Part shown: positions 2,164 to 10,581 of the stretch, one piece after another
Position numbering within the stretch: the stretch's first letter is position 1
Layout of the letters: each line of letters begins with the position of its first letter
Virus genome (UHGV): UHGV-0266139
Reading direction: 5' to 3' (one strand)
Source of the DNA: a virus
DNA length: 10,581 bases
Translations under genes and position numbers: made by a program
The notes under the pieces: model-generated
Database searches by the model: none
Seen by the model: the letters and a program-made list of their open reading frames with translations, nothing else
What the model was told of the DNA's origin: nothing

Positions 2164-2343
2164 TTAACAAACTTGAACGTTAATCTTTACCTGAATTTCG
2201 TATTTCTTCATTAGCTTGTAGAATCCGCTTCTATCAATTCCTTCCTTCTTAAAGAAGTTTTCCCCGCCTCGCTCAGTGTCGCTGTAAAAGCGTTTAGCAA
2301 TATCAACAATCATTTCACGAGTGAACTTAACAGGTCTAGCCAT
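2164..2343 (-). CDS. Small HTH DNA-binding protein, 59 aa (MARPVKFTREMIVDIAKRFYSDTERGGENFFKKEGIDRSGFYKLMKKYEIQVKINVQVC); first gene of the leftward operon
   Basis: Track ORF starts at a GTG (2358); the ATG at 2343 has GAGGAA 7 nt upstream. RP..F...DIA...Y....GI..FYK.MKK pattern resembles Hin/resolvase-type or Mor/C-type HTH domains (from memory). Paralogous to 5629..5856. Confidence 0.55.
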   Translation of the reverse strand: MARPVKFTREMIVDIAKRFYSDTERGGENFFKKEGIDRSGFYKLMKKYEIQVKINVQVC

Positions 2344-2443
2344 CAGTCGATTCCTCACATGTGGATTAATAATTTCTTAAAAAAGAGCATTTCGCTCTGA
2401 ACACTTGTATTTATAAAATGATTTTCAGAAAACCCTGTAAAAC

Positions 2444-2729: not shown

Positions 2730-2912
2730 CGAGAAATGGCTATCAAATTTTTTGTTTGAAAATGGTAGATCAGGATTATCAACCTTTATAACCTATTATG
2801 GCACGGAGACCTTTTGACAATTCTTTTTAAATCATTAACTTACGCCACTTTTTGGTGATTTTTTGATTAAATAATATACAATAATTTTCTATCAAAATAT
2901 TTGATGGGAATT

Positions 2913-3105
2913 GCCCCTGAAATTCTGAATTTTTGCCCCCGAATAAAATCCCCAAGATTCCACTATCCAATTTTTGCCCCTGAAACCTACTATTTTTGCC
3001 CCTGAAATTCTGGGAAACAGTGATTTTGCCCCTCATTTTTGCCCCTGAAATGACAATAATTGCCCCTGAAAATCTAATTTTTGCCCCTGAAATTTGCCCC
3101 CGAAA
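2913..3105. repeat. Array of about 9 same-orientation direct repeats, consensus TTTTTGCCCC(T/C)GAAA, mostly 21-22 bp apart (iteron-like)
   Basis: GCCCC cores start at about 2913, 2935, 2976, 2998, 3028, 3041, 3062, 3083, 3096 (hand-counted); a further copy at 5446-5455 sits inside a terminator stem. Confidence 0.7.
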
Positions 3106-5437: not shown

Positions 5438-5445
5438 TAATTTTT

Positions 5446-5470
5446 GCCCCTGAATTTCAGGGGCTTTTTT
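5446..5470 (+). terminator. Strong intrinsic terminator: GCCCCTG (5446-5452) / CAGGGGC (5458-5464), T6 run (5465-5470); built on a copy of the GCCCCTGAA repeat
   Basis: Perfect GC-rich stem followed directly by TTTTTT, 9 nt after the Rha-like stop codon. Confidence 0.75.
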
Positions 5471-5628: not shown

Positions 5629-5856
5629 TCAAAAACCTGTTGCTTCTACGATCTGACCATCACCGATCTGAACATAGAATTTAATGTCTAACTTCTTCAT
5701 ATTCTTATAGAATTGGGCGATTGAGATCCCATGTTCACTAAGAATCTGTTCTTTCGCTTCCTTACCACGATCCGCTGTATAATAAGCGTAGGCAATATCA
5801 GCCATCTGTTCAGCGTTAAAACGGGCAGGGCGACCGCGAGTAGCTTTAGTAGTCAT
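5629..5856 (-). CDS. Small HTH DNA-binding protein, 75 aa (MTTKATRGRPARFNAEQMADIAYAYY...GISIAQFYKNMKKLDIK...), paralog of 2164..2343
   Basis: Track ORF starts at GTG 5889; ATGs at 5862 and 5856, the latter 9 nt from GGAG. RGRPARF then helix-turn-helix pattern resembles the Hin/resolvase-type DNA-binding domain (GRPR arm plus HTH), from memory. The start could be 5862. Confidence 0.55.
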   Translation of the reverse strand: MTTKATRGRPARFNAEQMADIAYAYYTADRGKEAKEQILSEHGISIAQFYKNMKKLDIKFYVQIGDGQIVEATGF

Positions 5857-5891
5857 AGTCATTTTCTCCAAATTAAAGTGAATGTTCACCT

Positions 5892-6494
5892 TTATTTAGA
5901 GGACTTACATTTTATCGGAAAAAGTTCTCCATCGTCAACCGACATAAAGAACTCTGCCTTAATCCCGTACTTCTTCAACCGTGAATAGTATGTACCCCGA
6001 CTAATATCAACCTTGCGAAGCACTTCGAAGAACTCTTTAGGATTCCTGTAATAATGGCTATAACGCACGTTAGCGAGTTCAACGAATAGTTCCCTTGTAT
6101 CACCATAGCCTTTCTTGAAAGCCTCGTTACGATAGCGTGTAATAGCGTGATTCGATCTCTTCTGTTTAAGCACTTCCCTGATCGGCTTCCACTGCAACCG
6201 ATAGATTGGACCGCCATCCACTCGATAATAACGCTTGATATCAAAATCAAACCATTCACGGACTCGCTGAAACTCTGTCTGTGATGTTCGGTGCTTCTTA
6301 AAGAAGTTATGAATATCGGTATACCCATGATCGCGATACAACTCGATTAAAATCTCTTTCGCTTCCTCACGACTAAAGCCAGATGTTGTGTAGTCGGTTT
6401 TTAAATGCTTATGCTTAACGGGTAAACGATATTCATGATCGGTACAAGACAAGGCTAATTCTAATTCATCTCTTTCTTGCTGATTAATTAGCAT
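5892..6494 (-). CDS. Basic 200-aa protein rich in R/K/Y with a C-terminal HTH module related to the two small HTH proteins; candidate DNA-binding regulator
   Basis: ATG at 6494 with AGGAGG about 4 nt upstream; C-terminal ...[26 protein letters not shown] aligns without gaps to the 75-aa protein (IS, Y, KK, IK). No nuclease motif (GIY-YIG, HNH, LAGLIDADG) seen. Confidence 0.65.
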
Positions 6495-6581: not shown

Positions 6582-8489
6582 ATGAAACTAATTTCTAATA
6601 AGGCCAAATTAAAAAAGATTCTCAGAAATGCAGCCAAATATATTACGCCACCGCCTAAACTCCTTCCATCGGAATGGTGCGAAGCGAATATGGTGCTGGT
6701 AGATGGTCCTCAAGCTGGGGATAAAGTTAAACTGCTGTCATTCCAGAAAGGCATGATTGATGCTCCTTTCCTTGAGAACAAGAAAAAGTATGTTCTGATG
6801 ACCAGTGCGCAGATCGGAAAGACTACCATCCTGAACGGCATCCTGTTTAACCAGATGGCTAACGATCCATGCAATATGATTATCGGACAATCAACCGCTA
6901 AAGAAATGTCTCAATATCTCGCTGGTAAGATCCGACCGTCTATCGAAGCATGTGATGCATTAAAAGACGTGGTTACAGACAAGAATGATCGCAATTCGGT
7001 TAATAACAATAACCAGCTACAGCTCAAAACGAATCACTTCCTGTACATGGTATCGCTTACCAGCCCATCAACCCTACGTGGTAAGACCGCAAAGGTTGGA
7101 TTACTTGACGAAATTGATGCTGCCACAGCCTCAGAAGAAGGTGATCCGGTGGCACTGGCTGCTAACCGTTTAACTACCTTTGGAGATGAAGGTCGATTAG
7201 TCGTATCCAGTACCCCGACCAGTAAGCTGGGAAGCATTAACCAGCAATGGTTATCAAGCGATATGCGTATGTTTTTTGTTCCGTGTCCTCATTGCGGGGA
7301 ACACCAGGTGATCGAGTGGGAAAACGTTCAATTTGAATGGCGTAACATCGATGGTAAGAACTTACCCGATCCTGATACCGCTCGTTATATTTGCCCCCAC
7401 TGTAAGAACGCATGGACAGAAGGGGAACGAATCAGGGCAGTAGCGCAAGGCGAGTGGAGAGCAACCCGTGAAAGTGAAGTAGCAGGATTCTGGATCAGTC
7501 GTCTGTATTCACCTTTCAGCACGATTCGCGCTTGTGTGGTTGATTTTAGTCATGCGTGGCAATCCTTTGATTTACAATCCTTTTTTAACACCGTGTTAGG
7601 CAAGGTATACGATGATCAGGACACGGCAGTAGAAGCAAATGAACTGGAACAACTCAAAACAGATGTTTCTATCGAGAATATCCCTGATGACGTGATTTTC
7701 TTGTGCTCAGGAATTGACCAGCAATTGGACCGCGCAGAATCTACCATCTTAGGTGTAGCGAAAGATAAGGTTTACATTCTGGATCACCGTAGCTTTTACG
7801 ATCATAACTGTGAACGATATGAATCCCCTGTATGGGATCGTCTGATTAACTTCAAGAAAACCAAATTCTATAACGTTAATGGTGAACGTGTGCCAATGCT
7901 CGCCAGCTTCCTTGATACATCGAACGGTCGATTCACTCAAGCCGGATACCGTATTTGCGGCAAGTGGAAGAACCTACACGCTATCAAAGGTAGTTCATCT
8001 GGTAATGCTCCAGTGATTCCGGTTAAACCTACCCGCACAGGTGGTCATGAATTGCTTATGCTGGGTGTTAACGTTGGTAAATCCGCTGTTCGTGAAATGC
8101 TGGTTAGAAACCTGAAAGATAATCCTCATATTGGCTTAGAAATATCAGAAACCGTTCCTGATGATTATCTCGATCAGCTTTTGAGTGAATCCATCAAGCG
8201 TACTACTACTGGCGTGCGTTGGGTGAAAAATCCAGGTAGTACCCGAAACGAGGCTCTCGACTGTCTGGTTTATAGCTATGCTGCTTCTCGCTACGTCCTT
8301 TCAAAAATGTCATGGGATAAACTCATTGCAATGAAAGACAGCTTAAACCGTGTTGTCGAAGAATCCGTAGAAGCTCCTAAATCGCAATCTGACGAGCAAA
8401 TAGAAGAAACTAAGCCAATCACACGACCACAACGTCAAAACATCGCCAGACGTCCAAATAGAGGCCGTAGCTGGGTAACATCGTTCTAA
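6582..8489 (+). CDS. terL: Terminase large subunit, lambda gpA type, 635 aa
   Basis: ATG with GAGGG 7 nt upstream. Walker A-like SAQIGKTT, acidic VGLLDEID, zinc-ribbon CPHCGEHQ...CPHC, and blocks [32 protein letters not shown] match lambda gpA (ACPHCGEEQ, YSPFTTW, AGIDSQLDR, RNEALDCFVYALAA) from memory; size matches (lambda 641 aa). Confidence 0.9.
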
Positions 8490-8495
8490 TAACTC

Positions 8496-8513
8496 GCCGT
8501 CCTTCGGGGCGGC
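8496..8513 (+). other. Stable hairpin GCCGTCC-TTCG-GGGCGGC (one G-U pair) between the terminase and the next gene
   Basis: 7-bp stem with UUCG tetraloop seen directly; no clean T run follows, so likely a partial terminator or mRNA stability element. Confidence 0.35.
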
Positions 8514-8561
8514 TTACTCCTAAATATTGTTAATCCAATAACAATTAAATAAGGGGTAATT

Positions 8562-9056
8562 ATGAGTTTAGAACTAATTCCCTTAGTAATTCGTAAAGGC
8601 GAAAAAATCACGCTGGCGAATGAAGAGGGTGTAACAATTCAGGTAGGAAATAGTAAAGGTATCATTTATCAGGTTGATGATACTCCGGCTAATCACGAGA
8701 TTAAAACCTTAGATTTTGCCGAAGGTAAATATACCATCGTAACCACGTTGGAAGATGAACTGGTATCAATGCAGGAATTAACTGTATTGCCGGTATTCGC
8801 CAAACAATCCAAAAAAGAATATCTGCGGGAAACTATCGCCACAATCGAGCAAGTTATTTTCGCCCGTTTATCTGGGGACGAAGCCGCATTATCTCAAATG
8901 ACAGTGAAAGGGAATACTTTCGCCTATGAGTCATTGGCTGTTCTCCAGCAATTGAAGACTGATTATGAACGTCAGTTATCTAAATTAATTCAAGCCGAAC
9001 GACGTAAACAGGGAATTAGCCCGATTAAAAATATTAAAGTACGTCTTACGCGATAA
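8562..9056 (+). CDS. Head-tail joining protein, gpW-like C-terminal region with an extra N-terminal region of about 95 aa; 164 aa total
   Basis: ATG with AAGGGG 5 nt upstream; stop abuts the portal ribosome-binding site. C-terminal about 65 aa (ARLSGDEAALSQMTVKGNTFAYESLAVLQQLKTDYERQ) resembles lambda gpW (68 aa) in pattern and in position between terminase and portal; the N-terminal region has no lambda counterpart. Confidence 0.55.
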   Translation: MSLELIPLVIRKGEKITLANEEGVTIQVGNSKGIIYQVDDTPANHEIKTLDFAEGKYTIVTTLEDELVSMQELTVLPVFAKQSKKEYLRETIATIEQVIFARLSGDEAALSQMTVKGNTFAYESLAVLQQLKTDYERQLSKLIQAERRKQGISPIKNIKVRLTR

Positions 9057-9066
9057 GGGGTAAATC

Positions 9067-10509
9067 ATGTTTAATCTTTTTCGACGCAAAAAGGCGGTAG
9101 AAACTCCAGTTAAAACTAATCACCGCCAGCAACAACCAAAAATTTTCATCGACAAACAAGTAGAAAAATTCCAGAAAGATTTGTCTAAGCGTTCTTTGGG
9201 CTTGGTCGGTGATCGCATTGATGGATCGCTTCAACAAGATACTATCACAGGAACCTTCAATAAGGCTCTCAAATCGAACGGTAAGCGCCTTTATGATCAG
9301 GGTCGTACTCTGGCCTTAAACACTTCCGTAGGCAGTCGCTACACGCAATACATCACCGATATGGTGGTTGGTACTGGCCTAGATCCGAAGCCGTCAGTTG
9401 TTAAATCAAATGGAAAACTTGATAGCGCACTGAATAAGCAGATCGAGAATGCTTTCTGGAAGTGGGCGCAGAATGCTAAACGCTTCTCTCGTAACGGTCG
9501 CTTTAACTTCCGTGAACTGCTGGTAATGGCTGAACGTGAGCGCGTTATGGGTGGTGAGTGCTTCATAGTTTTAACCAAAGAAAACAATGAGTTAAATGTT
9601 TCTATCCTGTCTGCTGATAAGTGCGACTGGACGCTCAACCGTGAAGTAAGCAAAGAACGTGCTATCTATCAGGGGATAGAGTATGACGTAGAAACAATGC
9701 GCCCTGTTGCATACTGGTTTCGTAAAATCAACCTACTGACTCAGACTTACACAGGTGATAACTATCGCGTAGATGCTTCGCAAGTATGCCATTATTATCA
9801 ACCACTTGCGGCTGAATCTCTGCGTGGTGTGACTGACTTCCTGCCAGTGATCAAGGATATTGCGCATCAAGACGCATTCCGCGAAACCGCGATCATCCAG
9901 AAACGTATTGCAGCTAGCTCTATGGGCTTTATCGAACGTCCGAAAGATTCTGGTGACGATTTTGATACTGGTGAAGAGGATGAACAATATCAAGCGCCGG
10001 AAGTAGTACAGGATTTTGCACCGGGTACTATTCAGGAATTGCCGGAAGGGGCAACGATCAAGAGCATCCAGGCGACGCAAAGCGGTGATGATTTCAATTC
10101 CTTCAATGATGCGATGTTTACTAGCGTATCAATGGGCTTAGGCGTGTTTAAACAGGGCTTGACTGGTGATACTTCCCAGATCAACTACTCAGCCGCGCGT
10201 TTCGGTGAACTACTTCAACGTAACCGTGTTAAATCGCTACAAAACAAATTGATTGAAACAGTGGTATTGCCAATTTTTGAAGCATATCTACGCCATTATT
10301 CCGCGCGTGGTATTGTTCCGATTCGTATTACTGCAATCCCGCATATTATCGATAACACTACTATTATTCGTCCGCGTTTTGAGTCCGTCGATGTTATTAA
10401 AGATGTGAACGCTGATATTGCTTTAATTGATAACGGACTTAGAATCTATCCCAAAAGGATTTTATTCCAGACAATGATGCTGCAAGCAAAATGCAGCATC
10501 GCCTCGTAG
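9067..10509 (+). CDS. Portal protein, lambda gpB type, 480 aa
   Basis: ATG with AAGGGG 6 nt upstream. Blocks FWKWAQNAKRF...NFRELLVMAERERVMGGECFIV and GLGV...YSAAR parallel lambda gpB (AAWKEFAED...TFTMMIREGV...GELFV; GLGVSYEQLSRNYAQMSYSTAR) from memory; correct synteny after terminase and gpW. Confidence 0.85.
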   Translation: MFNLFRRKKAVETPVKTNHRQQQPKIFIDKQVEKFQKDLSKRSLGLVGDRIDGSLQQDTITGTFNKALKSNGKRLYDQGRTLALNTSVGSRYTQYITDMVVGTGLDPKPSVVKSNGKLDSALNKQIENAFWKWAQNAKRFSRNGRFNFRELLVMAERERVMGGECFIVLTKENNELNVSILSADKCDWTLNREVSKERAIYQGIEYDVETMRPVAYWFRKINLLTQTYTGDNYRVDASQVCHYYQPLAAESLRGVTDFLPVIKDIAHQDAFRETAIIQKRIAASSMGFIERPKDSGDDFDTGEEDEQYQAPEVVQDFAPGTIQELPEGATIKSIQATQSGDDFNSFNDAMFTSVSMGLGVFKQGLTGDTSQINYSAARFGELLQRNRVKSLQNKLIETVVLPIFEAYLRHYSARGIVPIRITAIPHIIDNTTIIRPRFESVDVIKDVNADIALIDNGLRIYPKRILFQTMMLQAKCSIAS

Positions 10510-10581
10510 TTTTCGACTTTCTTCTCCCATCGCGTCAGTATGCGGCGAAAGCGATTCATCCAGCTATGTGTTCTTTCCACA
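10491..10581 (+). CDS. 5-prime end of the next gene (MQHRLVVFDFLLPSRQYAAK...), overlapping the portal stop by 19 nt and running off the window; by synteny possibly a head protease or scaffold gene
   Basis: ATG at 10491 in a different frame from the portal, open to the window end; the 19-nt overlap mirrors the lambda B/C overlap. No clear Shine-Dalgarno and no sequence match to lambda gpC, so weak. Confidence 0.3.
   Translation, partial: MQHRLVVFDFLLPSRQYAAKAIHPAMCSFH

Follow-up and report, generated by a model that had tools for sequence, protein, structure and literature searches.

The window analysed here is a stretch of 10,581 nucleotides (nt) from the virus genome UHGV-0266139, and its subject is a plus-strand open reading frame (ORF) that runs from an ATG at position 8562 to position 9056 and encodes 164 amino acids (aa) in the ORF list of the window. 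Pfam matches identify its neighbours as a gpA-type large terminase (TerL) upstream and a lambda-family portal gene downstream, which is the slot of gpW, as an initial annotation made from the sequence alone had stated. That annotation took the ORF for a gpW-like head–tail joining protein with an N-terminal extension of about 95 aa. Our analysis upholds the head–tail joining function, on the basis of a match to phrog_5774, homology to the adaptor of phage R4C and the gene slot, and assigns the ORF to a different family: we put the probability that it is an R4C-type head–tail adaptor at about 0.85. The genes and signals around the ORF are as follows.

6582..8489, plus strand: large terminase of the gpA type, upstream neighbour (PF05876, E=9e-57; PF20454, E=8e-44)
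8496..8513, plus strand: stable hairpin of 7 bp with a UUCG loop and no T-run (RNA fold, -14.1 kcal/mol, z=-3.3)
8551..8556, plus strand: Shine–Dalgarno-like AAGGGG, 5 nt 5′ of the adaptor ATG (read from the sequence)
8562..9056, plus strand: probable adaptor (head–tail joining) gene, 164 aa, phrog_5774 / R4C type (PHROG, hhalign, Foldseek)
9067..10441, plus strand: lambda-family portal gene, downstream neighbour and predicted binding partner, truncated by an IS5-family element (PF05136, E=2e-63)

Family assignment and predicted architecture

In PHROGs, the ORF falls in phrog_5774 'head-tail joining' (E=4.4e-9), with residues 48-160 aligned to positions 58-174 of 177. Against the same family, the adaptors of R4C, FoX1, VP882 and Mano have E values of 1e-37 to 1e-66, which marks the ORF as divergent within it. 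In a profile–profile comparison by hhalign, the ORF family (A2) and five R4C-type adaptors (A4) align over 111 columns with a probability of 95.7% and E=9.2e-9; the alignment begins in the last strands of the N-terminal domain and reaches the C terminus. These five adaptors, which are 176-191 aa in length, come from R4C (MK882925, found by tblastn), Xanthomonas phage FoX1, Vibrio phage VP882, Rhodobacter phage RcCronus and Achromobacter phage Mano. In all five phages the adaptor precedes a lambda-family portal and then a large major head protein, a fusion of protease and major capsid protein (MCP). The order TerL, adaptor, portal and protease–MCP is common to the five phages, the Escherichia coli prophage that carries the window sequence and distant metagenomic relatives.

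A family-profile search of sequences in the PDB picked out 8gtd_M, a 178-aa 'head-to-tail joining protein' present as 12 chains (E=0.089). This entry was visible only with the profile; a single-sequence phmmer search of the PDB returned noise only. 8GTD is the portal–adaptor complex of the Dinoroseobacter siphophage vB_DshS-R4C, in which the adaptor is the product of gene 004 (chain M) and was seen by cryo-electron microscopy as a dodecamer capping the portal (PMC10276861). We modelled the ORF with AlphaFold2 (AF2) from a 14-sequence alignment (mean predicted local distance difference test (pLDDT) score of 73). When the model was compared with the PDB by Foldseek, 8gtd_M ranked first (E=1.3e-5, 179 aligned columns), and all other matches of the full model covered only the immunoglobulin (Ig)-like half. 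The predicted order is seven strands (residues 8-76), a linker, a helix (84-104), a short hairpin (~114-119), a second helix (125-149) and an unstructured basic tail, which correspond to the following parts of the gene.

8583..8789, plus strand: Ig-like beta-sandwich at the N terminus, residues 8-76, predicted to face the capsid as an 'attachment domain' (AF2, seven strands, block pLDDT 71-81)
8790..8810, plus strand: inter-domain linker, residues 77-83 (AF2 secondary structure)
8811..8873, plus strand: core helix 1, residues 84-104 (AF2; aligns with helix 1 of the R4C-type tube domain and with the 73-aa stand-alone adaptors)
8874..8933, plus strand: loop or short beta-hairpin, residues 105-124, with the conserved motif I-N-x-K-T-[FL]-x-Y (AF2 strands ~114-119)
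8934..9008, plus strand: core helix 2, residues 125-149 (AF2 pLDDT 81-86; aligned to helix 2 of the R4C tube domain)
9009..9053, plus strand: basic arm at the C terminus, residues 150-164, QGISPIKNIKVRLTR, predicted to enter the clip of the portal (unstructured in AF2; aligns with the R4C hook)

In the R4C adaptor, the N-terminal Ig-like 'attachment domain' spans residues 1-106 and touches the capsid proteins that surround the vertex across a symmetry mismatch. Two helices (107-130 and 149-166) make up the 'tube domain', the 'adaptor loop' between them (131-148) holds the stopper, and the 'C-terminal hook' (167-178) takes part in hybrid beta-sheets with the clip of the portal (PMC10276861). 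The ORF shares with this adaptor the PHROG, the N-terminal Ig-like domain, the two helices with a loop between them and the C-terminal hook; both also have a lambda-family portal and a protease–MCP fusion downstream, and an RcGTA-like tail module. The two proteins differ in length (164 aa versus 178 aa), in the size of the N-terminal domain (~70 aa versus ~100 aa) and in sequence (Foldseek identity of ~16%). R4C is a lytic phage of marine alphaproteobacteria with an extra gene, annotated SSB, between TerL and the adaptor, whereas the ORF belongs to an enterobacterial prophage. Within the core, the loop at residues 105-124 is the most conserved sequence block, which includes Y122 and L128, and by analogy would be the equivalent of both the R4C 'adaptor loop' and the hairpin of lambda gpW; in the C-terminal arm, G151 and I158 are nearly invariant.

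The family match in phrog_5774, the profile–profile homology, the four-part architecture (at moderate model confidence) and the gene position all agree with the R4C type. An Ig-bearing adaptor has already been described structurally (R4C, 2023) and catalogued (phrog_5774), and the ORF is a divergent enterobacterial member of this type. What we add is modest: a series of stand-alone and fused cores, recombination located in the linker and a link to gpW that, though weak, is reproducible. Adaptors with an 'attachment domain' in Avs-1, T5 and DT57C were also considered; they are of a different (RcGTA g6 / HCP) type and are not relevant here.

The Ig-like domain and the proposed neck mechanism

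The initial annotation had argued that the N-terminal part is probably translated, from a strong ribosome-binding site at the start and none at internal methionines. The start codon is indeed preceded by AAGGGG at 5 nt, whereas M70 and M112 have no comparable Shine–Dalgarno (SD) sequence and are not conserved in relatives. Prophage homologues from E. coli, Salmonella, Shigella and E. fergusonii have 164-165 aa, and more distant representatives, with 28-46% identity, have 155-168 aa and can be aligned along their full length, so that the comparison of gene lengths that had been recommended also speaks for the full-length protein. Among eight E. coli prophage alleles (Nei–Gojobori method), the median ratio of nonsynonymous to synonymous substitution rates (dN/dS) is 0.13 for codons 1-77 versus 0.28 for codons 78-164, and the first 26 residues are identical. 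Both halves are under purifying selection, and the 'extension' is more constrained than the core. Because the N-terminal half is under purifying selection, the length is kept and M70 and M112 lack an SD sequence, we conclude that the N-terminal part is translated, and we reject an internal start.

The extra region is therefore present, as annotated, at ~84 aa (residues 8-76 plus the linker) rather than ~95 aa, and what had been described as a gpW-like C-terminal third is the C-terminal half, approximately residues 84-164. The suggestion of a fused extra domain fits well, with a gpW-sized C-terminal core and a translated N-terminal domain that AF2 predicts to fold separately.

The N-terminal domain is modelled as a small beta-sandwich, and Foldseek matches it to many Ig-like and FN3-like structures as well as to 8gtd_M. 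At the sequence level, the Pfam models Big_2, I-set and FN3 did not match the ORF, nor did PF17802, and its best Pfam match was RodZ_C at 19.2 bits, under the cut-off of 23.9. When the N-terminal half alone was compared with the R4C-type N-terminal domain by hhalign, the alignment spanned 14 columns only (E=0.016, probability 2.9%), which contain the motif T-x-x-F/W-x-x-G-x-Y/W; none of 200 shuffles reached the score. The domain agrees with the R4C attachment domain in position and fold class, and is a candidate orthologue of it. Other phage Ig-like accessories (Big_2, I-set and FN3 domains on capsid, tail-tube and fibre proteins; PMC10276861) are likewise small appended beta-sandwiches that are dispensable and apparently exchanged horizontally. 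They sit on the capsid surface or tail, whereas the Ig-like domain of the ORF is predicted to be at the neck.

From the homologous R4C adaptor, and with lambda gpW as an analogue, we infer the following mechanism for the neck. Twelve copies of the adaptor would bind under the portal after DNA packaging, and the basic C-terminal arm (residues 150-164) of each would enter the clip of the portal and augment a beta-sheet there. The two core helices would form a ring that prolongs the channel, and the conserved loop or hairpin (~105-124) would face the channel and the stopper, provide the docking surface for the next neck protein and possibly contact the DNA. The Ig-like domain (8-76), on its flexible linker, would reach out and back to the capsid proteins around the portal vertex and brace the symmetry-mismatched junction. 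The dodecameric state, the surfaces in contact with portal, stopper and capsid, and the stabilizing role of the N-terminal domain are all proposed by analogy. The idea that the extension is a decoration comes close to this mechanism, insofar as the domain would make the capsid contacts at the portal vertex that are seen in R4C.

The N-terminal Ig-like domain might instead be an outward-facing adhesion or decoration module that weakly binds glycans of the host surface or the environment; such a role has been put forward for Ig-like domains of phages, Hoc-like ones among them. An exhaustive phmmer search of representatives found 21 stretches weakly similar to residues 8-63 of the adaptor in P0122, a protein of 3,784 aa with dozens of repeats of SpaA/prealbumin-like domains (PF17802, E=2e-49), and the isopeptide-forming fimbrial protein 9lty_A gave a weak profile match (E=0.45). 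This phmmer similarity, a sum over the 21 repeats of P0122, is the sole tie of the ORF to PF17802. This affinity to adhesin repeats points towards glycan binding, as do the dispensability of the domain in related head modules, its recombination independently of the core and its only partial sequence homology to the R4C attachment domain. In the sole solved relative, however, the domain lies on the capsid at the portal vertex, a site that the authors of the R4C study considered unsuited to adsorption. There would be only 12 copies per virion, at the neck, and the low dN/dS of the N-terminal half (0.13), together with its 26 identical initial residues, is unlike that of typical fast-evolving receptor-binding modules. 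We therefore consider an adhesion function unlikely. As a separate observation, the similarity to P0122 hints that the phage N-terminal domain may derive from, or converge on, a bacterial adhesin-type beta-sandwich.

Several points weigh against the assignment to the R4C type and the neck mechanism built on it. A close homologue was not found in the collection of cultured phages, in which the sole tblastn match was DCP80 at 35.6% identity, and the place of the ORF product in the virion is proposed on the basis of homology. The R4C adaptor model itself is backbone-only, at 4.7 A (PMC10276861). Confidence in the AF2 model is moderate, with pLDDT of 55-66 in the hairpin region, and the C-terminal half alone gave no specific fold match. 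As the similarity between N-terminal domains is limited to 14 columns, these domains may not be orthologous, and that of the ORF could contact something else. Finally, the portal gene diverges from intact alleles at ~10441 and is truncated near residue 458 of 503; the remainder of the window (10441-10581) is the end of an IS5-family element and matches, at 100%, a region annotated 'IS5 family transposase' in another E. coli genome. Because the portal is cut by this element, the prophage copy in the window is probably defective; other strains, such as E. coli GN4741 and CFSAN061761, have intact portal copies.

Stand-alone cores and the relation to lambda gpW

A search with a profile of the C-terminal halves recovered recurrent proteins of 73-79 aa that match phrog_5774 at positions ~98-175 (E=1e-13 to 1e-28) and, weakly, phrog_118 and phrog_2545. 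They align with the C-terminal half of the ORF over all of that half (hhalign, 97.4%, E=1.6e-11). These stand-alone adaptors (P0354, P0366 and P0305), which are known from metagenomic contigs only, have the same slot and neighbours as the ORF without the Ig-like domain: their contigs carry, in order, a gpA-type TerL, the short gene, a PF05136 portal and a protease–capsid fusion. In three contigs (L019-L021) the gap between TerL and the core gene is 2-10 nt, which leaves no room for an N-terminal domain; in L022, TerL is followed by three other genes and then by a 79-aa core gene that is directly upstream of the portal. Given cores of 73-79 aa without the N-terminal domain in the same slot, we regard the Ig-like domain as an accessory on a gpW-sized core. 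A further candidate, P0131 (75 aa), was rejected as a stand-alone module, because its sequence is that of residues 68-142 of P0123, cut short in gene calling. Contigs L019-L022 also vary in the protease that is joined to the capsid protein (Peptidase_S78 in L019 and L022; ClpP plus NfeD in L021), and the three intervening genes of L022 include a GDSL lipase and a Gp77-like protein.

Lambda gpW (68 aa; PDB 1HYW, 8K38) has no N-terminal domain. It resembles the ORF in slot, in role class (a dodecameric adaptor between the portal and a gpFII-type stopper) and, as the ORF is modelled, in its succession of helix, hairpin, helix and basic C-terminal arm. In situ, these elements of gpW comprise residues 4-22, 23-36, 37-54 and 55-68, Arg32 in the hairpin clamps the DNA and the C-arm augments a portal beta-sheet (PMC10721106). 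The modelled core helices of the ORF are longer (21 and 25 residues versus 19 and 18). DNA retention, which the initial annotation had suggested for the extension, belongs to the hairpin of gpW in lambda and by analogy would belong here to the C-terminal core, not to the extension.

Tests for membership of the gpW family were negative. PF02831 had no match at E<=10 for the ORF, ten relatives, the stand-alone cores or the R4C-type adaptors, and NCBIfam gave nothing for the ORF or its C-terminal half. BLASTP of lambda gpW against the ORF found no match, with a gpW query that had been checked against PDB 1HYW (E=4.5e-40). Lambda gpW maps to phrog_75 and the ORF to phrog_5774. All 120 gpW homologues listed carry PF02831, and the full-length ones are ~65-72 aa; in contrast to a single domain of ~68 aa, the ORF has 164 aa and two predicted domains. 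An alignment of 20 gpW sequences, all with PF02831, is shallow (effective number of sequences (Neff) of 1.7), and the hhalign probabilities against it are 0.6% for the ORF family and 0.3% for the A7 alignment.

A combined profile of C-terminal halves (A6) did better against the same shallow alignment (10.6%, E=0.003), with 52 columns in a topologically equivalent register. When the columns of the gpW alignment were shuffled 300 times, no shuffle reached the A6 score of 19.4 (mean 9.1, standard deviation 1.8, maximum 16.6), and the reversed gpW alignment scored 7.5. In addition, phrog_2545 'adaptor Ad1' is matched by both the stand-alone P0354 (5.7e-6) and lambda gpW (0.002). The sequence evidence for a common ancestry of the ORF core and gpW is weak.

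These results bear on whether the C-terminal part is a genuine if diverged gpW of the lambda type (PF02831 / phrog_75), to which the N-terminal part was added by fusion. The slot between a gpA-type TerL and a lambda-family portal, the element order shared with in-situ gpW, the A6 alignment beyond all shuffles and the bridge formed by phrog_2545 between P0354 and gpW are what such a member would show. The missing PF02831 and BLASTP matches and hhalign probabilities of at most 10.6% speak against it. The absence of gpW similarity by profile search had been named beforehand as the outcome that would count against membership, so the narrow gpW claim fails, and we judge such membership quite improbable. 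A broader relationship is possible, and we propose it tentatively: the core of phrog_5774 may be remotely homologous to lambda gpW, both belonging to one adaptor superfamily that extends from minimal forms of 68-79 aa to forms of 160-190 aa, in which the Ig-like N-terminal domain is an exchangeable cassette, swapped at the linker independently of the portal-binding core. If this is true, the same portal/adaptor core could be fitted to different capsids or could gain a ligand-binding function.

That the ORF encodes a non-virion protein, such as a packaging accessory or a substitute for the small terminase (TerS), is highly improbable. In its favour, no TerS gene was recognizable next to TerL or elsewhere in the window, and the genes that directly precede TerL lie on the other strand without a family match. 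Against it, the homologue of the ORF product in R4C has been physically resolved as part of the virion, the phages R4C, FoX1, VP882, RcCronus and Mano all encode a TerS in addition to the adaptor, and Pfam, PHROGs and NCBIfam returned no small-terminase match that would support this identity for the ORF.

Prophage alleles and other features of the locus

The window matches a chromosomal prophage in ~55-70 of 5,426 complete E. coli genomes, in which the adaptor gene is always annotated 'hypothetical protein'. Downstream, the head module of this prophage encodes a protease–MCP fusion of 669 aa (phrog_617/4523) and, behind it, tail proteins (major tail, distal tail and DUF2163 type); the same head module occurs in metagenomic relatives at 31-34% identity.

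The prophage alleles are mosaic. Two E. coli alleles (L010 and L011) are 96-100% identical in nucleotides to the window between the end of TerL and ~8800; identity then drops to 60-75% and holds at 55-61% into the portal gene. Interval by interval, it is 95-100% up to 8742-8801, 75% at 8802-8861 and 46-73% beyond, into the portal gene. The recombination junction, at ~8800-8830 (codons 80-90), coincides with the predicted linker. When the window is compared with L010-L013, two classes of C-terminal half and portal emerge, with adaptors that end in QGISPIKNIKVRLTR (164 aa) and AGNYSPITPIKVRLTR (165 aa), and the allele of the C-terminal half co-segregates with that of the portal, as expected if the C-terminal half docks on the portal. 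Each half of the adaptor gene can be exchanged without the other.

These comparisons allow a 'hypothetical protein' in many E. coli, Salmonella and Shigella genomes to be named an R4C-type head–tail adaptor. They also bring the only structurally characterized type of Ig-bearing adaptor, previously seen at 4.7 A in the marine roseophage R4C, into a host that is amenable to genetics; E. coli would allow deletion tests of the attachment domain and a higher-resolution structure. Stand-alone cores, Ig-fused forms and linker mosaics provide a natural comparison of what an accessory domain adds. The current understanding of phage necks is not overturned.

The TAAGGGGTAA motif of the adaptor SD sequence recurs before the portal ATG at 9067, where it overlaps the adaptor stop codon, which suggests that the adaptor and portal genes are translationally coupled. 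The hairpin at 8496-8513 is directly 3′ of the terminase stop codon. It was not among the terminators called, and may serve RNA stability or processing between the cistrons of terminase and adaptor. A scan around the adaptor gene gave no promoters or terminators.

DCP80 (L001, PQ671644.1, 1734-5735) is an Escherichia phage of 141 kb classified as Tevenvirinae/Gaprivervirus. Its first 6 kb include an annotated large terminase and a 161-aa adaptor homologue (35.6% identity), and the ORF in the portal position is annotated only 'hypothetical protein'. This arrangement is unexpected for a T4-like phage and may be a chimeric assembly or a misclassification.

Three minus-strand ORFs of the window (2164-2358, 5629-5889 and 5892-6494) have no family match and share a similar C-terminal motif, (G/A)-[FQT]-[FY]-Y-x-x-[ML]-K-K-[YL]-x-I-[KQ], which the 200-aa ORF among them appears to hold more than once. 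They may be a small prophage-specific family of helix-turn-helix-like DNA-binding proteins. In an apparently non-coding stretch at 2911-3105, there are eight direct copies of TTGCCCCTGAAA with 0-2 mismatches, neighbouring copies being 13-63 nt apart (mostly ~21-22 nt), and an inverted pair of the same word (TTGCCCCTGAAT / TTCAGGGGCTT) occurs at 5444-5466, right after a Rha-like gene. The ten matches compare with 0.94 expected, and none of 200 shuffles reached ten. This arrangement resembles iterons or a series of operators, and is a candidate replication origin or regulator-binding array.

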